Notes: generated by a model from the sequence alone, not told the origin. Shown: positions 4,760-62,934, counted from the stretch's first letter. The stretch is DNA of 64,000 bases from Candidatus Nealsonbacteria bacterium (GCA_026396195.1 JAPLXH010000005.1:3710-67709), one strand, 5' to 3'. Translations and numbers: made by a program.

Positions 4760-4776
4760 TTGGATTCGTGTAATAA

Positions 4777-4800
4777 AAAATCTGCCTTTCGGCAGATTTT
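4777..4800. terminator. bidirectional hairpin terminator between convergent genes
   Basis: aaaatctgcc-tttc-ggcagatttt, flanked by A/T runs on both strands. Confidence 0.6.
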
Positions 4801-4816
4801 AATTACCAATTACTCA

Positions 4817-5566
4817 TTACGCGTTACTGTTTTTAAAAGCCTTGACTATTGGCTCTAAATTTCCATCTAAAATTTTTTCCAGATTATGCCAGGATTTTTT
4901 TATTCTATGGTCGGTTATCCGGTCTTGGGGAAAATTATAAGTACGTATTTTCTCTGACCTTTCAGCCGAACCTATCTGATTTTTTCGCTCTCCCGTAATT
5001 TTTTCTTGCTCCAGTTGTTTTTGTCTTTCAAGAAGCCTTGCCGCCAAAATGCTCATTGCGTTTTCTTTATTTTCCAGCTGATTTCTTTCGGTTTGAGAGG
5101 TGACTACCAAGCCGGTTGGCAAATGAGTAATTCTGATGGCTGTTTCTCTTTTATTTACATTCTGTCCGCCCGGTCCCGATGCTCGGTAAACGTCAATTTT
5201 TAAATTTTCCGGCCGGATTTGAATTTCCGTTGGTTTTGGTTTCAATAAAACGGCACAGGTGATAGTTGAAGTATGGACTCGGCCGTTTTTTTCGGTTCTT
5301 GGAATACGTTGAACCCGGTGAACGCCGCCTTCATGTTTTAAGCTATCCCAAGCTCCCTCTCCTTTTAGTTCGAAAATTACATGTTTTAGCCCCCTCAAAG
5401 AAGTAGGATTTATATCCAAGGTTTTTTGCTTCCAACCTCTATATTGAGCGTAATTTGAGTACATTCTGAAAAGGTCTTTGACAAACAAAGCCGCTTCCTC
5501 GCCGCCGGTTCCGGCTCTAATTTCAAAAATAAGGGCCTGGGATTCTTTTTTAACTTCATTTTCCAT
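4817..5566 (-). CDS. prfA: peptide chain release factor 1, lacking N-terminal domain 1
   Basis: GGQ motif (ASGPGGQNVNK), RF1-type recognition region RVQRIPRTEKNGRVHTS, and EIRAGTGGEEAALF close to the N-terminus. Only 249 aa. Confidence 0.8.
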   Translation of the reverse strand: MENEVKKESQALIFEIRAGTGGEEAALFVKDLFRMYSNYAQYRGWKQKTLDINPTSLRGLKHVIFELKGEGAWDSLKHEGGVHRVQRIPRTEKNGRVHTSTITCAVLLKPKPTEIQIRPENLKIDVYRASGPGGQNVNKRETAIRITHLPTGLVVTSQTERNQLENKENAMSILAARLLERQKQLEQEKITGERKNQIGSAERSEKIRTYNFPQDRITDHRIKKSWHNLEKILDGNLEPIVKAFKNSNA

Positions 5567-7761: not shown

Positions 7762-7818
7762 AATAATAATTATGAGTTGTCTCCGGGGATAGCTCAATGG
7801 TAGAGCAATCCCGATGTT

Positions 7819-8061
7819 GCCACCTTAGCTCAATTGGTAGAGCAACAGTTTTGTCCCAGAAGTATCTTTCCCGATGAAATCGGGATTAGAACTTCGGGAT
7901 CCCGTAAATCTAAACTCGCCGTCCTAGCTCAATGGTAGAGCAACAGTTTTGTAAACTGTAGGTTGTCGGTTCAAATCCGACGGACGGCTCACGAAATGTA
8001 TGGCGAGTAAGATTTTACTGGGATAAACTGTAGGTTCGCGGTTCGAGCCCGCGAGGTGGCT
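7819..8061 (+). tRNA. split tRNA-Thr(UGU): halves 7819-7854 and 8025-8061 separated by a 170-nt insertion
   Basis: Joining the halves gives GCCACCT TA GCTC AATTGGTA GAGC A ACAGT TTTGT|AA ACTGT AGGTT CGCGG TTCGAGC CCGCG AGGTGGC T, a perfect cloverleaf. The insertion ends pair with each other (CCCAG 7855-7859 with CTGGG 8018-8022). Confidence 0.45.
7918..7989 (+). tRNA. tRNA-Thr(UGU), intact, innermost of the nest
   Basis: GCCGTCC TA GCTC AATGGTA GAGC A ACAGT TTTGTAA ACTGT AGGTT GTCGG TTCAAAT CCGAC GGACGGC T. All stems are Watson-Crick. CCA is not encoded. Confidence 0.9.
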
Positions 8062-8136
8062 TTACGGAATTTTAAGAACATCGGGATAAACTGTAGGTTG
8101 TGGGTTCGAATCCCTCTCCCGGCTTGAATTGCTTGA

Positions 8137-8291
8137 CCCCCCCACTAATTTTACTAATAAATTTTATGCGCAGTGCGTATGCCCAATAGCTCATAAACCT
8201 TTTTTGGCGAAGCGTTGCGCCTCAAGACGGGATGTGGCTATTCGCCACTGGCGCTTCGCAAATAACTCCCGAAGTAAAATTAGTGGGGGGG
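8137..8291. mobile_element. MITE-like element: 19-bp perfect terminal inverted repeats flanked by TTGA on both sides
   Basis: CCCCCCCACTAATTTTACT at 8137-8155 is the exact reverse complement of 8273-8291. TTGA lies at 8133-8136 and 8292-8295. The interior is GC-rich and holds a GCGAAGCG/CGCTTCGC stem. Confidence 0.4.
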
Positions 8292-8319
8292 TTGACAGAG
8301 GTTTTTAAAAAAGTAGTAT
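8292..8319 (+). promoter_or_regulatory. candidate 16S promoter
   Basis: TTGACA (8292-8297), a 16-nt spacer, then TAGTAT (8314-8319), about 75 nt upstream of the 16S 5' end. Confidence 0.3.
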
Positions 8320-8393
8320 TGAATATACAAGAACATTAAAAATTTATTGTTGTTAATTAAGTGTTAGTGTTTTAGAGTCGTTTCGAACTCTAT

Positions 8394-9899
<1,506 letters not shown>

Positions 9900-10046
9900 A
9901 TTTTAAGTGTCGGCTATAATTGAAATCGGAAATTTGGATTTTAATTATAAGGTATTAATCGAACCGCGGAAAATTGTTTTTAACAATTCCGCGCCTGCGT
10001 GAATAGAGAGTATATTCTGCGCGGTACCTTCAAAGATCGATTGCTT

Positions 10047-10073
10047 AGTTCGAAACGACTCTAAGATACTAAC
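10047..10073 (+). other. 3' strand of the pre-16S processing stem (partner 8363-8389)
   Basis: agttcgaaacgactctaa (10047-10064) is the exact complement of ttagagtcgtttcgaact (8372-8389). Pairing extends imperfectly to 8363/10073. Confidence 0.65.
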
Positions 10074-10160
10074 TTAAAAAACAAAAGCCTTTACCCCCCT
10101 CCCTTATTATAAGGGAGGGGGTTTACAGTTTTTGTATTTTTAATTAAAATCATGTTATAA

Positions 10161-10232
10161 GGGCGTGTGGCTCAGTGGTAGAGCGCGTTCCTGATAAGAA
10201 CGAGGTCGAAGGTTCGATTCCTTCCACGCCCA
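10161..10232 (+). tRNA. tRNA-Ile(GAU)
   Basis: GGGCGTG TG GCTC AGTGGTA GAGC G CGTTC CTGATAA GAACG AGGTC GAAGG TTCGATT CCTTC CACGCCC A. Confidence 0.95.
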
Positions 10233-10353
10233 CTTATAAAAGGGCCTATAGCAAAACAGAATTTTGATATATCAAGCTTCAGCTTGCTATAGTTTAATGG
10301 CAGAACACTACATTTGTCCCGATTGGAAATCGAGGATTCCTGATAACTTTGGT

Positions 10354-10428
10354 GGGCCCGTAGTTTAGTGGTAGAACGCCTCATTTGCAATGAGGAGATT
10401 GTGGGTTCGATTCCCGCCGGGTCCACCA
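10354..10428 (+). tRNA. tRNA-Ala(UGC), CCA encoded
   Basis: GGGCCCG TA GTTT AGTGGTA GAAC G CCTCA TTTGCAA TGAGG AGATT GTGGG TTCGATT CCCGC CGGGTCC A CCA. The G3:U70 identity pair is present. Confidence 0.95.
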
Positions 10429-10436
10429 AAGTTATC

Positions 10437-10575
10437 GGAACAAGTAGGGATGGAACAGTTCCCTGCCTGCCGGCAGGCAGGGATTCTGCCTAGGTCCACT
10501 GAAAGTTCGAGTCCCGTAGTCCCCGCCGACAACACCGCTTTTTAATAAGGCGGTTTTTTGGTAGAATAAAAGAAC
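10437..10575 (+). repeat. cassette-array boundary repeat A
   Basis: Contains the 22-nt palindrome ccctgcctgccggcaggcaggg (10461-10482), gttcgagtcccgtagtccccgcc (10505-10527), the hairpin ccgc...ggcgg plus a T-run, and TGGTAGAAT 8 nt before the ATG. Confidence 0.7.
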
Positions 10576-10833
10576 ATGAAAAAAATAAGTAAATTAGCAA
10601 TTCTTAGTTTTATTTTTTCAACTTTTGTTTTTCTTATTCCATTTATTGATAGATATATTCCTTATCCTTTTCCTCGCGAAACTGTTTATAGCCTTTTAGA
10701 TTATGGTGGTAATTTTGCAGCTTTAATATTAGGAGTAATAGCTTTAATTTATGTTAAGAAGAAAGAATTGAAAGGACAGTGGTTTGCGATATTAAGTATT
10801 ATTTTAGCGGCTATTGCTTCTCTCTATGTATAA
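10576..10833 (+). CDS. small multi-TM membrane protein (cassette 1)
   Basis: 85-aa ORF, three hydrophobic segments. Start is 8 nt after a TAGAAT -10 box. Confidence 0.5.
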   Translation: MKKISKLAILSFIFSTFVFLIPFIDRYIPYPFPRETVYSLLDYGGNFAALILGVIALIYVKKKELKGQWFAILSIILAAIASLYV

Positions 10834-11031
10834 CAGGCTCTAACATGGTTCGGTAAGAAAACCTAAATTTATCACAAAAATCCCCATTATTCTCCCTAAT
10901 CCTGGTTCTAACCCTTCGGCAGGCTCAGGACTAAGTCCTTCGGGGGTACTCAGGACTTATGCTACGTCTACAAGTCCCCGCAAACAACAGCCGCTTTTTA
11001 ATGAGGCGGTTTTTTGGTAGAATAGGGGAAT
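10834..11031 (+). repeat. cassette-array repeat B (with extra GC-rich mini-repeat insert)
   Basis: Blocks in order: caggctctaacat, ccccattattctccctaatcctggttctaac, gtctacaagtccccgc (10966-10981), hairpin plus T-run, TGGTAGAAT. Confidence 0.75.
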
Positions 11032-11847
11032 ATGAACAAGAAAATATCTACACCAATAGCCATAGGGATTATTTTAATCCTATCTGTTGCATTAATAATA
11101 TTTACTTATTGGCAGATTGCAGAGATAGAGAAAAATGCGAGCCAAATAATAGAAATTAAGGTTCCAGAGAAAGAAGAAATGGCGACATCAACGATAATAA
11201 CGGTAACTAATTTTGAAGAATGTGTTGCTAATGGATATCAAGTTGATAATGATACTTATTCACATTATCCTTATTCTTCCTTATGTAAGACTCCTGGCGG
11301 AGATGTGTTTATAAAAGGAATTGATAATAATAGAATATACGTTGAAAAAGAGAATGGTAAGATTGTTGCGATTAATGTAGGAGAAAAAGAATTAAAAATA
11401 AATGAGATTATTCCTAACCTTGTTGAGAAGCAGGAAATATCGGCAGGAGTTAAAGAAGAGTTAGAAAGTAAAGCAAAAGAAGACCACAAAGAATGCTCTA
11501 CCGAATATGAGAAATCTTTTATAGTAAAAATTTTTAAGATTGAATTAGATGACAATTTAGAAACAGAAGAATATGTTGTTGACTATTGGTGTGGAGGTCA
11601 GATTGAATTTTCTAATGTTTATAAGAAGATTGGGAATGAATGGAAAACAATTTTAGATGTTGGAGGATGGGTTGATAAGATTGAAAAAACGAAAATAAAC
11701 GGAATGCATAACCTTTTGATATTTGAAGAAATGGGGCTCAACAGCCCTGGAATAGAAACTCGTTATAAATGGAACTCTTTTCTTAACATATATGAAGAAG
11801 ACCAAAAATGGGATGTAATTTGGAATGTTTCAAATTTCACACAGTAA
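11032..11847 (+). CDS. secreted/anchored hypothetical protein (cassette 2)
   Basis: The N-terminus MNKKISTPIAIGIILILSV is identical to that of the 12763 gene. No known domain seen. Confidence 0.6.
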   Translation: MNKKISTPIAIGIILILSVALIIFTYWQIAEIEKNASQIIEIKVPEKEEMATSTIITVTNFEECVANGYQVDNDTYSHYPYSSLCKTPGGDVFIKGIDNNRIYVEKENGKIVAINVGEKELKINEIIPNLVEKQEISAGVKEELESKAKEDHKECSTEYEKSFIVKIFKIELDDNLETEEYVVDYWCGGQIEFSNVYKKIGNEWKTILDVGGWVDKIEKTKINGMHNLLIFEEMGLNSPGIETRYKWNSFLNIYEEDQKWDVIWNVSNFTQ

Positions 11848-11991
11848 AACAGGTTCTAACATCGTCAAATTGTCGCCAAATCTACCATATAGACCCCTCC
11901 ATTCTCCCTAATTCTGGTTCTAATGTCGTCTACGAGTCCCCGCTAAGCAAAACCTTTTTAATAGAGCGGTTTTTTGGTAGAATTAAATAAT
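11848..11991 (+). repeat. cassette-array repeat C
   Basis: aacaggttctaacat, ccattctccctaattctggttctaat, gtctacgagtccccgc (11928-11943), hairpin plus T-run, TGGTAGAAT. Confidence 0.75.
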
Positions 11992-12615
11992 ATGGAAATT
12001 AAAAATACATCAATAATTGAATGGGAAATAACGCCTTCGGAAAAAAGAGAAAGACTACAACAATTTATTTCAAAAACATGGTGGATAATTCTTTCTTTTA
12101 TTATTTTTTCTTTCTTTAGTTTCTATTCAGGATTTTGGTCTACTAAAATTCAACATGGCACTAACGCTGCTTTAAAAGAGCTTTTATTTATTGTAATTGC
12201 AGTAGCTGTAGGTATTTTACTTATATATTTCTTTAATAAGATTAATCCATATCAATTAAGAACTTTTCGTTTAGACAATGCAGGAGTTCAAATTTCTAAA
12301 GGAAAAAAGAAGAAATCTTATTCTTGGAACGAATTTGAATGTTTTTATGTTTACACAACTTACAGGGGCTATACGCCCAATAAAGAAACGGATTTAGGAA
12401 AAATATTTAAAGCAGAAGAACAAATAATGGGTGATATTTTCTATCTTAAGAAAAAACAAACAACTTTTTTGTCTAAATTATATAAAACTTTTATTGTTAT
12501 TTACTCCGAACCCAATAACCTAGGAGATATATTTAGCTTCTTAAAAGATAAACTGCCACAAAAAATAATGACAGCGACCACTGATTTTGGATTAATTTTT
12601 TATGAATTTAAATAA
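11992..12615 (+). CDS. two-TM membrane protein (cassette 3)
   Basis: ATG at 11992 lies 8 nt after TAGAAT. Two adjacent hydrophobic helices are followed by a soluble domain. Confidence 0.55.
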   Translation: MEIKNTSIIEWEITPSEKRERLQQFISKTWWIILSFIIFSFFSFYSGFWSTKIQHGTNAALKELLFIVIAVAVGILLIYFFNKINPYQLRTFRLDNAGVQISKGKKKKSYSWNEFECFYVYTTYRGYTPNKETDLGKIFKAEEQIMGDIFYLKKKQTTFLSKLYKTFIVIYSEPNNLGDIFSFLKDKLPQKIMTATTDFGLIFYEFK

Positions 12616-12762
12616 AGTAGTTCCTAACATAGTTCATTAATGGACTAAATCCATCATAAAAACCCCATTATTTTCCCTAATCCTGGTTCTAACGTTGTCT
12701 ACGAGTCCCCGCAAACAACAACCGCTTTTTAGTAAGGCGGTTTTTTGGTAGAATGAAACAAT
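12616..12762 (+). repeat. cassette-array repeat D
   Basis: agtagttcctaacat, ccccattattttccctaatcctggttctaac, gtctacgagtccccgc (12697-12712), hairpin plus T-run, TGGTAGAAT. Confidence 0.75.
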
Positions 12763-13899
12763 ATGAATAAAAAAATATCTACACCAATAGCAATTGGTAT
12801 TATATTAATCTTATCTGTTCTTTTGGGCGGTTTTACCTTGTGGCAATGTTCAGAGATACAGAAAGAGAAAATTGAACCAACATTATTAGAGAATAAAGAG
12901 CAAACAACAGATTTGAAAGAAACGGCACAAAATCTTTTTAGTGATTATTTAGATAAATATAAAAATACAGATACGACCCTTAATGACAGAATTAAAAGTT
13001 ATATAATTAATGATATTAAAATAGATATGACCGAAGACGATTGTTTTGGATTTACTGTTAATTATTCAGTTGAGACCCTTAAAGACCAAAATAATAATTT
13101 AACTAATTGGGTGGCTGGTAATGGTAAAGAGGATGGCAATTGGGTTAAAAATAAACAAGAATTTGTAGATGCAATTAAAGAAAATGGGAATTATAAAATT
13201 AGAGAAATGGGAACGGGCAGAGGTTCAATAAGTTGTATGGGTGAGCAAGACGAAACCGCTGATTGGAAGACTTATAGTAATGAGGAGTATGGGTTTGAGA
13301 TAAAGTATCCCGAAAAGTGGCCTATAGACGAGGATTATAATAACGAGAATTATTACGCTAATGTTACCATTAGAGAGCAAAATGGTGAAGGTAAAATGGT
13401 TGACTTATATATTTATAATAATCCCAATAATTTATCTCTTACTCAATGGCTTGATTTTTATGACCAAAATATATGCGGTTCCGTTGGAGAAAGAAAACCA
13501 ATTTCAATTGCTGGTGTTGAAGGAATTAAAGGCGCACATTACTGCGGCGATTCTTATTTAGAGGGAATTTTTTTATTAAAGGAAAATAAAGTTTATAATA
13601 TCAATTTTCTGTGGGGTGGGATGGAAGAAACCGTAGGACCTATCAAAGATGAAGAAGGAATTTATAACCAAATGCTTTCTACTTTTAAGTTTATTGAAGA
13701 AACTACTGATAATATGAAAAATTGTGAAATTGATTCAGATTGCGTTGGTTCGGCTTGCTGTCACCCTGATTCATGCATTAATAAAGCATATAGAGGAGTG
13801 TGCAATGTGTTCTGTACTCAAAGTTGTGAAGGACCGTTAGATTGCGAAAAGGGAAATTGTGCGTGTGTTAATAACAAATGTGTAATAATAGCTAAATAA
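12763..13899 (+). CDS. secreted/anchored protein with Cys-rich C-terminus (cassette 4)
   Basis: Same 19-aa N-terminus as the 11032 gene. The C-terminal 60 aa contain 14 Cys (CEIDSDCVGSACCHPDSC...CACVNNKC). Confidence 0.6.
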   Translation: MNKKISTPIAIGIILILSVLLGGFTLWQCSEIQKEKIEPTLLENKEQTTDLKETAQNLFSDYLDKYKNTDTTLNDRIKSYIINDIKIDMTEDDCFGFTVNYSVETLKDQNNNLTNWVAGNGKEDGNWVKNKQEFVDAIKENGNYKIREMGTGRGSISCMGEQDETADWKTYSNEEYGFEIKYPEKWPIDEDYNNENYYANVTIREQNGEGKMVDLYIYNNPNNLSLTQWLDFYDQNICGSVGERKPISIAGVEGIKGAHYCGDSYLEGIFLLKENKVYNINFLWGGMEETVGPIKDEEGIYNQMLSTFKFIEETTDNMKNCEIDSDCVGSACCHPDSCINKAYRGVCNVFCTQSCEGPLDCEKGNCACVNNKCVIIAK

Positions 13900-13990
13900 T
13901 TTTCATAGTTTTTATCAATTTCTACCCACCCAAAGGTTCTAAACGTGTCCCGTAGTCCCCGCAAAAAAATCGCCATTTAGACGGTTTTTT
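13900..13990 (+). repeat. cassette-array boundary repeat E (truncated unit)
   Basis: aaaggttctaaac, then gtcccgtagtccccgc (13947-13962, identical to 10511-10526), then hairpin aatcgccatttagacggtttttt. Confidence 0.7.
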
Positions 13991-14134
13991 GTTTTAAATA
14001 AAGTTATCCACAATCACTTTAAGGCTATTTTTGCTAAAATAACATAAACTTAATAAATTTGATTTTTCCTATTTCATTAGGAAAATATTGAATTATTTTA
14101 AAGGTCGAAGCAAAAAAAATAAAAATTTAAAAAC

Positions 14135-14815
14135 ATGACAAGTTGGTCTATGATTATCCGTGAAAGTTTACAAGGTCTTTTACAAGATTCAATATCTTAT
14201 CTTCCTAAAATCCTTATAGCATTGATTGTTGTAATAATCGGTTGGCTTGTGGCCGTAGGGATTGGAAAGGTAGTAACAGAAATTTTGAGAAGAATAAAAT
14301 TTGACACTCTTTTTGAAAAAGGAGTTTGGAAACACGCTTTACAAAAAGCTGAATGGAAAATCGACCCTTCAGGGTTTATCGGAGCCATAGTTAAATGGGT
14401 TTTATTCGTTTCTTTTTTAATAGCAGCCGTAGAGATTTTAGGGTTTATTCAATTTGCTATTTTTGTCACCAATATAGCTGCTTGGTTGCCGAATATTATA
14501 GTGGCAGCGGCTATTTTTGTGGTAGCGGTAATTGTCGCAGAATACTTGCCAAAAATCATCAGAGCCGGGATTGAAGGATTGGAAATAAAATACGGCAGTT
14601 TATTGGAAACATTGACAAGAGGAGCGATTTGGGTTTTTGCCGTTCTGGCCATCTTAATTCAGCTGGGAATTGCCGAGGAATTAATTATGACTTTGTTTAC
14701 CGGTTTTATAGCATTTTTGGTGATTGCCGGAGGTTTGGCTTTTGGTTTGGGAGGGAAGGATGCTGCCGCAGAATTTTTGGAAGACGTGAAAAAGAAAATG
14801 AAAGAAAAAGAATAA
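14135..14815 (+). CDS. multi-TM membrane protein (conserved TM-helix-repeat type, MscS-associated-like)
   Basis: Repeated hydrophobic helices ending in GLAFGLGGKDAAAEFL. The family assignment is tentative. Confidence 0.5.
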   Translation: MTSWSMIIRESLQGLLQDSISYLPKILIALIVVIIGWLVAVGIGKVVTEILRRIKFDTLFEKGVWKHALQKAEWKIDPSGFIGAIVKWVLFVSFLIAAVEILGFIQFAIFVTNIAAWLPNIIVAAAIFVVAVIVAEYLPKIIRAGIEGLEIKYGSLLETLTRGAIWVFAVLAILIQLGIAEELIMTLFTGFIAFLVIAGGLAFGLGGKDAAAEFLEDVKKKMKEKE

Positions 14816-14871
14816 TTAAACTTTTTTACTTTTTAGCGCTAAGAAGTTATAAAAGTTGAATTTTATTTTCG

Positions 14872-14904
14872 GAATTGAGCCCTTTAAGAGGGCTCAATTC
14901 TTTT
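14872..14904 (+). terminator. intrinsic terminator
   Basis: gaattgagccc-tttaag-agggctcaattc followed by tttt. Confidence 0.7.
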
Positions 14905-14939
14905 GACTTATTGGGCAAATAAAGTAAAATAAAAATAAT

Positions 14940-33875: not shown

Positions 33876-34033
33876 TTTCTTGCCTCCTTTTTTAATAAGC
33901 CATTTCCACCCTACCTCTATTTTCGCTTAATTTCAAATAAAAAATCGCCCTATAAGCGATGAACGTATAATTTGCAATCTATATTTTGCACGACATATTG
34001 CATAAAGAATCGCCATTTAGGCGGTTTTTTGGT

Positions 34034-34080
34034 TTGACAAATTAGTGATTTAGAGTAAAAAGATAGAGGAGGTTGAAATA
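34034..34080 (+). promoter_or_regulatory. conserved promoter/SD module (TTGACA-16-TAAAAA-GATAGAGGAGG)
   Basis: TTGACA 34034-34039, TAAAAA 34056-34061, AGGAGG 34067-34072, TTG start 34081. Near-identical modules occur at 36738-36786 and 62376-62424. Confidence 0.6.
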
Positions 34081-62811: not shown

Positions 62812-62934
62812 CCCGAAATAATATTTTCTGGGCTTTTTTTATTTTTGGAATCTCCATACCAAAATCGCCTAAAGAGCGATTTTTTAGTAGAATTAAAGAA
62901 AGTTAAAATTTATTTATCTTAATTTATTATTTTT

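Follow-up and report, generated by a model that had tools for sequence, protein, structure and literature searches.

Directly behind the 16S rRNA operon in a 64-kb stretch of DNA from Candidatus Nealsonbacteria, a member of the candidate phyla radiation (CPR, Patescibacteria), lies an array of four small genes separated by a composite repeat. In the following, this stretch is called the window, and coordinates are counted in it unless a contig is named. The array is a genuine feature, a cassette island that varies between strains or species, and an earlier inspection of the DNA alone (the sequence-only reading) was right in taking the repeats at its borders for attachment (att) sites. We consider it probable that positions 10527-13982 represent an additive flexible island, in which four independent single-gene cassettes sit as a block at a site provided by the 3' end of a pseudo-tRNA-Asp and are served by a recombinase acting in trans. 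The insertion site would lie just past tRNA-Ala, at the end of a 16S operon that appears to have been devoid of its 23S gene already. Of the elements already known, tRNA-linked additive islands with repeats of partial tRNAs come closest to it.

Five copies of the composite repeat, the spacers IG0 to IG4 (alignment A1), bound the four genes g1 to g4, all located on the same strand, between positions 10505 and 13982. All open reading frames (ORFs) and spacers of the array of membrane or secreted proteins that the sequence-only reading had described behind tRNA-Ala were thus located. From 5' to 3', the repeat comprises an invariant 9-mer, AGTCCCCGC (starting at 10518, 10973, 11935, 12704 and 13954), an A-rich tract, a terminator-like hairpin followed by T6 and, as the last element in IG0 to IG3, an extended -10 motif, TGGTAGAAT, which is present 8 nt upstream of all four cassette ATGs and upstream of no other gene in the window. 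IG1 to IG3 additionally contain the block CCCCATTATTCTCCCTAATCCTGGTTCTAAC and a degenerate version of (C)AGGTTCTAACAT directly behind the stop codon. The identical 16-mer that had been reported to bracket the array, GTCCCGTAGTCCCCGC, is indeed found exactly at 10511-10526 and 13947-13962, and inner copies occur at 10966 (GTCTACAAGTCCCCGC) and at 11928 and 12697 (GTCTACGAGTCCCCGC). Shuffled sequence is expected to contain 0.03 copies of the 16-mer, 0.00 of the TTCTCCCTAATCCTGGTTCTAAC block and 0.30 of GGTTTTTTGGTAGAAT, compared with 3, 3 and 4 observed in the array; the only block match elsewhere in the 64 kb, at 62878, has two mismatches.

When a profile built from 19 modules was run against the window, strong matches were confined to the five array copies (E 1e-10 to 1e-24), and two weak ones, at 34005-34033 and 62859-62902, covered the terminator and promoter part only (ATCGCC..GGCGG + T6). 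Therefore, only the 5' site is specific for the array, and the ATCGCC..GGCGG-T6 terminator is a more general element. The view that all repeat blocks characterize the array needs to be narrowed accordingly: it holds for the 5' blocks, which are found nowhere else in the 64 kb, but not for the 'hairpin plus T-run' and the 'promoter'. At the two outlying places (34005-34040 and 62855-62893), an AATCGCC-loop-GGCGGTTTTTT terminator is joined to a sequence resembling a promoter (TTGACA at 34030 and AGTAGAAT at 62886, respectively); terminators of this type apparently serve repeatedly throughout the genome and in different CPR lineages. No Rfam family was assigned to the repeats, neither in a scan of the whole window at the gathering threshold nor in a scan of 7800-14200 at E <= 10. 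The blocks are direct repeats rather than imperfect palindromes. Beyond the predicted terminators no RNA structure was detected in the spacers or the site, 11 sites yielded no consensus fold, and the spacer fold z-scores relative to shuffles (+0.78 to -2.7) are accounted for by the terminator and the palindrome in IG0.

Public genomes and metagenomes were scanned with a sequence pattern, and this led to locus L005, the intact tRNA-Asp(GTC) of which terminates in GTTCGAGTCTCGTCGTCCCCGCCA. Window positions 10505-10527 match this 3' end in 20 of 22 nucleotides, the best value among 33 tRNAs, with 16/22 for the runner-up. The core can be read continuously as G53, T-loop TTCGAGT, T-stem CCCGT, acceptor strand AGTCCCC, G73 and CC, and G73 together with such a T-arm is typical of bacterial tRNA-Asp. 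The register from T-loop to acceptor 3' end that had been proposed for the left copy is therefore correct and can be specified as tRNA-Asp. No matching 5' half was found, and no tRNA is predicted at this position by ARAGORN or Rfam. Judged by its nucleotide sequence, the core is a relic of the end of a tRNA-Asp gene. The insertion target is accordingly a 23-nt fragment and not a functional tRNA; the adjoining intact tRNA is tRNA-Ala, in contrast to the counterpart array in L005, which follows an intact tRNA-Asp. An assignment of AGTCCCCGC to the T-loop and T-stem of tRNA-Ala(GGC), a tRNA that contig L009 possesses, was dropped for the window because the L005 tRNA-Asp matched over the full 22-23 nt including the T-loop. 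L009 contains a separate, genuine duplication of a tRNA-Ala end.

Relatives were reached via homologs of the MscS-like gene downstream of the array and are close species rather than strains (MscS-like proteins 87-95% identical). In L016, located on an 804-kb contig (Ga0265297_10000012), the 16S rRNA gene is 99.0% identical to that in the window and both flanks are syntenic, and here tRNA-Ala is followed by the same flank, a single core (GTTCGAGTCCCGTAGTCCCCGC, 9775-9796), a terminator, AAATAAAGTTATCCACAAT and the MscS-like gene, without any cassette. Identity between the window and L016 ends exactly after ...CCCCGC and restarts at 13983. The same empty arrangement is present in an independent assembly, L017. 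In L045, the relative closest to the window (95% identity in the MscS-like protein), a PsbP-like ORF ends and is followed by ACCCACCCAAAGGTTCTAAACGTGTCCCGTAGTCCCCGC, which is identical to IG4 over the final 45 nt before the junction, including the 39-nt P arm and the core, and directly after the junction the empty-site post-core sequence takes over (78/94 to L016). Other fillings of the same spot are an uncharacterised ORF of another kind that ends in GTTCTAACGTCGTCTACGAGTCCCCGC and is followed by a terminator of the L016 type (L018), yet another ORF (L019), a 111-aa ORF with paired CxxC motifs (L022 and L024) and a pilin-like gene (L025 and L027). The comparison of relatives thus bears out the att-site reading: the site is empty in some (L016, L017), clean at its right junction in L045 and otherwise filled in others. 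The whole can be read as a series consisting of attB (L016, L017), attL (IG0), attR (L045, and IG4 with a replaced terminator) and internal junctions resembling P-O-P' (IG1-3), in which all junctions are placed at the 3' end of AGTCCCCGC.

The following course of events is proposed. The A-rich tract and the intrinsic terminator would insulate a cassette from read-through out of the rRNA/tRNA operon or the preceding cassette, and the extended -10 motif would then start a leaderless or near-leaderless mRNA. A leaderless start would fit because the 3' end of the 16S rRNA gene (9885-9899) reads GGATCAATTATTT rather than GGATCACCTCCTT and does not contain the anti-Shine-Dalgarno motif CCUCC; the same applies to L016 (9101-9115). 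Obvious Shine-Dalgarno motifs were not seen for the window genes, and the four cassette genes look leaderless. Each cassette would give rise to one small membrane-anchored or secreted protein. Its stop codon is directly followed by a linear site of about 35 nt, TAA..CWGGTTCTAAC-NNN-GTCNNNNAG-TCCCCGC, whose 3' half corresponds to the tRNA-Asp acceptor end; this site would contain the recombination point. Gain and loss of cassettes by recombination at the 3' end of the 9-mer would produce the attL, attP-like and attR junctions of the series, and if cassettes recombine at the core, alternative neighbours would follow ...GTAGTCCCCGC. The enzyme is most likely a site-specific recombinase of the tyrosine type, encoded elsewhere and acting in trans.

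The same syntax is found in further CPR genomes. In L005, the genes at 5386, 6716, 7709 and 8508 follow the intact tRNA-Asp, each ATG is preceded by ..AAACCGCTTTCTGATAAGGCGGTTTTTTGGTAGAAT and then 6-9 nt, and the gene ends carry sites such as CCTGGTTCTAAAATCGTCCGCTATTCCCCGCC and CCACCCAAAGGTTATAAACGTATCCCGTAGTCCCCGCC; L005 8414-8457 is 93% identical to IG4. L009 has three modules after tRNA-Ala(GGC), with ACAGATTCTAACATTGTCCATTAGGGGGAGCCGCC or ACAGGTTCTAACATCGTCCATCAGG just past the stop codons, and L029 has modules after tRNA-Arg/His, where ACAGGTTCGAACATCGTCCACTAGGGGACCTGCC and a second copy lie on either side of a g4 homolog. Alignment of 11 sites (A2) yielded the consensus TAA..CWGGTTCNAAC-NNN-GTCNNNNAG-(TCCCCGC or a GC-rich variant), followed by an A-rich tract and a terminator. 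The modules are near-uniform inside one genome and different between genomes. L009 and L029 also contain exact 20-nt copies of a tRNA's own 3' end, from TTCGA of the T-loop onward, which flank homologous inserts of about 125-145 nt without ORFs at tRNA-Ala(GGC) in L009 and tRNA-Arg(TCT) in L029 (regions concerned: L009 130-275, L029 8458-8600 and 13297-13400). These inserts end in ..GGAATGCCTTCGGGCAACTC, and the uninterrupted version of the L009 tRNA-Ala(GGC) site is present in L029. Exact duplications of tRNA ends together with an uninterrupted site show that integration at tRNA ends does occur in these genomes. The left flank of the array (10437-10504) bears a likeness to the end of these small inserts, and window positions 10480-10505 look related to an insert end of the ..GGAATGCCTTCGGGCAACTC type.

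Among viral contigs, the module pattern had no match and the site pattern seven, which lie mostly inside coding regions and are probably due to chance; the phage and plasmid collections contained no match, and the literature that was searched has no description of such cassettes in CPR bacteria. One IMG/VR contig (L038, GC 0.47) with phage capsid-like and endonuclease VII-like genes ends (4760-4982) in a module of CPR type (..ATCGCCTAGCAGGCGGTTTTTTGGTAGAAT) together with a homolog of the gene at 8508 in L005. This contig has the look of a chimera, although it may also represent a genuine phage/host junction, and it was not used as evidence. Synteny between L005 and the window, at first guessed from ORF lengths, proved wrong, as the 414-aa ORF of the window encodes an aldolase.

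Several observations speak against site-specific capture in trans. In the window, families of recombinases, integrases, resolvases and transposases were absent from all ORFs of at least 120 aa in Pfam scans that included PF00589, in agreement with the sequence-only reading, and unannotated ORFs were scanned for recombinase families even at E <= 0.5. None of the four cargo proteins has a recombinase domain, and no recombinase is among the called genes of L016, L028 and L029 according to their precomputed Pfam annotation; L005 and L009 were read as ORF lists only, without a family scan. The core shows no obvious inverted core-binding repeats, and neither an excision product nor a circular form was seen. 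The right junction of the window is not clean, since the second core is followed by a terminator other than the one at the empty site, and at least one further replacement is needed there. Homologous recombination also acts on the array, as witnessed by the 5' module shared by g2 and g4 and by the comparison of g4 with L029, and the uniformity of modules within a genome could also be explained by local duplication or gene conversion. Furthermore, the terminator and -10 part is not specific for the array, and the distant loci share AGTCCCCGC, the T-run and GGTAGA partly by construction, because the search pattern demanded these elements (ascertainment bias); the GGTTCNAAC..GTC..AG half and the position after a stop codon were not part of the pattern.

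Recombination through the conserved spacers is the main rival mechanism, in view of the identity breakpoint between g4 and L029 and the replaced terminator. The same island would then be turned over by DNA uptake and exchange via the conserved spacers of about 100 nt and the flanks, and the tRNA-like core would be a mere relic. CPR bacteria possess competence and pilus genes, no recombinase was found, the modules are homogenised inside each genome, and the terminator between core and right flank varies among relatives as if it had been replaced. Mosaic genes with sharp identity breakpoints within coding regions also fit this explanation: the promoter and the 5' 60% of g4 share 86% nucleotide identity with a gene in L029 over 575 nt, after which similarity ends. 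However, the left (window versus L016) and right (L045 versus L016) junctions lie exactly where a stretch of 16-23 bp of identity ends, which is too short for efficient RecA-dependent exchange, and homology is zero on one side of each junction; a site-specific enzyme acting in trans is therefore favoured. The copying of exactly 20 nt of a tRNA end in L009 and L029 is likewise what integrases, not homologous recombination, characteristically leave behind, and we judge turnover by homologous recombination alone to be rather unlikely, with a chance that is still appreciable. Another explanation sees the spacers purely as cis-regulatory or RNA elements of a surface-protein regulon, with the array arising by local tandem duplication followed by divergence or replacement of the ORFs and without dedicated mobility. 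The occurrence of the terminator and -10 part elsewhere in the genome, the position of the site always within the transcribed 3' untranslated region (UTR), the consistently membrane-anchored or secreted cargo and the exclusively synonymous differences in the anchor shared by g2 and g4, indicative of selection on function, are in line with it. It is difficult to reconcile with four ORFs that are unrelated although their spacers are mutually 75-94% identical, with the loss of the entire block from a relative with 99% 16S identity that retains a single core, with sites lacking a promoter in IG4, L016, L018 and L045, with the lack of a conserved RNA structure in the site and with a distance between site and -10 motif that varies from 29 to 38 nt. 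In an all-versus-all BLASTP comparison of the four proteins, only residues 1-60 of g2 and g4 were similar (57%, E ~1e-12; all others E > 0.005). The array genes therefore do not form a tandem paralog family, and the local amplification of a surface-protein family that the sequence-only reading had offered as an option does not apply. A purely cis-regulatory origin thus appears improbable to us.

A remnant of a classical integron, i.e., an attC cluster without integrase (CALIN), would account for single-ORF units in one orientation, for a short conserved element at or next to each stop codon and for content that varies between relatives, and integron recombinases, too, are encoded outside the cassettes. 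Chromosomal integron attC sites, such as the VCRs (Vibrio cholerae repeats) in Vibrio, are uniform within a genome and different between genomes, and so are the repeats described here. Yet the sites in our array are linear, directly repeated and of tRNA-end origin, with neither the imperfect palindrome of a folded attC hairpin nor R''/L''-L'/R' symmetry; there is no consensus structure, and the spacers fold no better than shuffles except for the terminator. Every cassette is predicted to have its own terminator and promoter, whereas integron cassettes are generally promoterless and rely on Pc, and neither intI nor attI was detected. Of the sequence-only suggestion of an integron-like or island-like system, the island-like part stands because the core behaves as an att site in close relatives, albeit with a recombinase that was not found, and a strict integron is so improbable that we give it hardly any weight. 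The same holds for an assembly or binning artefact, a chimeric contig in which repeats of different strains have been joined. Short-read assemblies do break at these repeats, and many contigs of relatives end here. However, the Logan contig L001, the only public contig with exact g4, agrees with window 12676-13961 at 100% identity, the g3 product has a 100% identical counterpart in NTU58_01110, deposited at NCBI from a 104-kb contig of a Candidatus Nealsonbacteria metagenome-assembled genome (MAG), the independent assemblies of other genomes L005, L009 and L029 show the same architecture, and both flanks are syntenic with the 804-kb contig. L001 starts within the repeated block, and its other end falls 1 nt short of the core end; both ends would fit a branch of the assembly graph at the recombination point. 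The exact g4 sequence is contained in SRR20698647.

Among known systems, tRNA-linked additive islands with partial-tRNA repeats are represented by the islands and tycheposons of Prochlorococcus (Hackl et al., bioRxiv 10.1101/2020.12.28.424599) and the additive flexible genomic islands (fGIs) of Alteromonas (PMC4898812), where successive integrations push older units outward and integrase-less remnants are common (10.1101/2020.12.28.424599, PMC4898812). The array in Candidatus Nealsonbacteria resembles them in its position at a hot spot beside tRNA genes, in the partial tRNA 3' copies between units, in the empty or differently filled sites of close relatives and in the atypical composition of the cargo. 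It is unlike them in that the units are single genes of 0.4-1.3 kb instead of multi-gene elements, that none contains an integrase or replication module, that the target is a tRNA-Asp 3' fragment instead of an intact tRNA, and that terminator, leaderless promoter and 3' site are uniform, so that what lies between the cargo ORFs is essentially conserved sequence for recombination and expression. The tycheposon hallmark, a tyrosine or large serine recombinase combined with a primase/helicase, is missing, and only the partial-tRNA array feature is common to both. As in tRNA-targeting islands, direct repeats of a tRNA 3' end flank the insert and relatives have a single-copy attB with junctions exactly at the repeat; a regenerated functional tRNA gene and an integrase inside the element are lacking.

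Modules that have no recombinase and rely on a host enzyme in trans are also known, namely the integrative mobile elements exploiting Xer recombination (IMEX) at dif and the pdif modules of Acinetobacter plasmids. The cassettes share with them the small cargo without its own recombinase, short specific sites as bounds and the possibility of tandem arrays. They differ in their tRNA-derived sites and in their location in a run of co-oriented genes beside an rRNA operon and not at the terminus. A 28-bp dif-like site with XerC and XerD arms was not seen, and by alignment only, no inverted 11-bp arms of a 28-31-bp dif-like site are visible in the 11 sites of A2. Features of miniature inverted-repeat transposable elements or insertion sequences were likewise missing: the units are not surrounded by terminal inverted repeats, and no transposase was found in the 64-kb window.

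On a more general level, CPR/Patescibacteria may own a cassette-capture system that parallels integrons and is built differently, with a site of about 35 nt taken from the 3' end of tRNA-Asp or another tRNA, insertion at tRNA ends or relics and a recombinase encoded elsewhere; we put this forward as a tentative idea that is possible but doubtful. If it is true, these ultra-small episymbionts would be able to swap their stock of surface proteins quickly. Little is understood of how CPR bacteria, with their tiny genomes and their dependence on host cells, renew surface and membrane proteins; the locus offers a sequence-defined mechanism of gene turnover with identifiable attB, attL and attR. The cassette grammar of site, terminator, leaderless promoter and ORF can be searched for across thousands of MAGs. 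Should a dedicated recombinase come to light, integrons would be joined by a second cassette-array system of independent evolutionary origin, which would also be a source of compact, self-insulated expression units. The locus also explains why assemblies of these organisms break beside rRNA and tRNA genes.

Table 1. Features of the cassette array and its surroundings in the window. Promoter and terminator elements are predictions.
Feature	Position	Strand	Description
16S rRNA gene	8395-9899	+	Rfam RF00177, 1366 bits
tRNA-Ile(GAT)	10161-10233	+	ARAGORN, Rfam; part of the 16S operon end
tRNA-Ala(TGC)	10354-10428	+	ARAGORN, Rfam; last tRNA of the 16S operon
Left flank (B arm)	10437-10504	+	Palindrome CCCTGCCTGCCGGCAGGCAGGG, then GGGATTCTGCCTAGGTCCACTGAAAG; kept in the empty-site relative (aligned with L016 9688-9774)
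attL-like core	10505-10527	+	GTTCGAGTCCCGTAGTCCCCGCC: T-loop, T-stem 3' strand, acceptor 3' strand, G73 and CC of tRNA-Asp; contains the 16-mer 10511-10526
IG0 P' module	10528-10575	+	A-rich tract, terminator-like hairpin 10534-10554, T6, extended -10 TGGTAGAAT 10559-10567, 8 nt to ATG
g1	10576-10833	+	85 aa; hydrophobic stretches fitting about three membrane spans; weak DUF4190-like match; GC 0.27
IG1 spacer	10834-11031	+	Degenerate site A after stop (CAGGCTCTAACAT); CCCCATTATTCTCCCTAATCCTGGTTCTAAC 10882-10912; tandem insert 10913-10965; core GTCTACAAGTCCCCGC 10966-10981; terminator-like hairpin 10989-11011; -10 11015-11023
g2	11032-11847	+	271 aa; N-terminal signal-anchor MNKKISTPIAIGIILILSV; no known domain; GC 0.31
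IG2 spacer	11848-11991	+	Site A 11851-11885 (AGGTTCTAACATCGTC...); site B + core 11894-11943; terminator stem degenerate; -10 11975-11983
g3	11992-12615	+	207 aa; two transmembrane segments; no known domain; ATG 11992 fits the repeat register
IG3 spacer	12616-12762	+	Site A 12619-12640; site B + core 12663-12712; terminator-like hairpin 12720-12742; -10 12746-12754
g4	12763-13899	+	378 aa; g2-type N-terminal anchor; PsbP-like domain (weak Pfam PF18933 match); Cys-rich C-terminus (17 Cys)
IG4 spacer (attR-like)	13900-13982	+	P arm + core CTACCCACCCAAAGGTTCTAAACGTGTCCCGTAGTCCCCGC ending at 13962; different terminator (AAAAAAATCGCCATTTAGACGG + T-run); no TGGTAGAAT
Right flank and MscS-like gene	13983-14815	+	..TTTTAAATAAAGTTATCCACAAT..; MscS-like gene 14135-14815; syntenic anchor, present in all relatives

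Features of the four genes are listed in Table 1. Their GC content at third codon positions is 0.13-0.25, versus 0.33-0.36 in neighbouring genes. The first 19 residues of g2 and g4 are identical, as the sequence-only reading had stated, and the underlying sequences differ by 7 nucleotides, all synonymous, rather than by 8. Homologs of g3 (49-50% identity) are located directly after tRNA-Leu genes in other CPR genomes. The cargo had no matches in PHROGs, PADLOC and PDB, covering phage, defence and structural proteins.

Searches of the whole window with ARAGORN and Rfam revealed neither a 23S nor a 5S rRNA gene. The sequence-only reading had placed the array where the 23S gene should be; the empty-site relative L016 has no 23S after tRNA-Ala either, and the array has therefore displaced nothing. 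A 16S operon without 23S is ancestral at this locus and no artefact. A separate 23S-5S operon without 16S is present on L028, a contig of another CPR bacterium (10927-14919), and unlinked 16S and 23S genes have already been reported to be common in Patescibacteria (10.1101/705046). The operon on L028 lies directly downstream of three genes with an MNKKISTPxAIGIIL anchor, and the 5' UTR of one of them contains a tandem repeat of about 45 nt that also occurs in L005 (10190-10330).

Some minor observations concern the spacers and the left flank. What had been taken for a variable hairpin block is, in the case of IG1, a tandem insert of two 25-nt units (CTTCGGCAGGCTCAGGACTAAGT, 10913-10965) within the site; one related copy (ACTTCGGCAAGCTCAGCGCAAGT) directly follows the core in L016 (9797-9819) and L045 (151-175) and is absent there in L018. 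The module part TTTTTTGGTAGAA (10553-10566, 11009, 11969 and 12740; family D8) agrees with the D-arm of tRNA-Ala, GTTTAGTGGTAGAA (10363-10376), in 12 of 14 positions, which may be a coincidence or a hint that the spacers descend from a tRNA-tRNA intergenic region; the likeness of TTTTTTGGTAGAAT to a tRNA D-arm, belonging to the same family, was too short for interpretation. The GC-rich palindrome CCCTGCCTGCCGGCAGGCAGGG between tRNA-Ala and the core (10461-10482) is perfect and is doubled in L016 (9707-9750). Its role may be that of a processing or termination hairpin for the rRNA operon, or it may be a piece of an old P arm.

Further tRNA fragments are found near the operon. A fragment resembling the 5' half of tRNA-Ala lies between tRNA-Ile and tRNA-Ala (10240-10350), and L016 has a tRNA-Ile 5' fragment upstream of tRNA-Ile and an interrupted 3' fragment downstream of it (9340-9600). 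In the window, an intact tRNA-Thr(TGT) (7918-7990) is followed by two tandem tRNA-Thr(TGT) pseudo-fragments at approximately 8021-8061 and 8083-8123 (region 7991-8123), each consisting of GGGAT fused to AAACTGTAGGTT, the T-arm and the acceptor end. L016 has no such fragments and a single tRNA-Thr, whose 3' part is reproduced exactly by the second fragment. The acceptor stem of the live tRNA-Thr in the window differs (GCCGTCC), and the tRNA has therefore been replaced and not merely extended.

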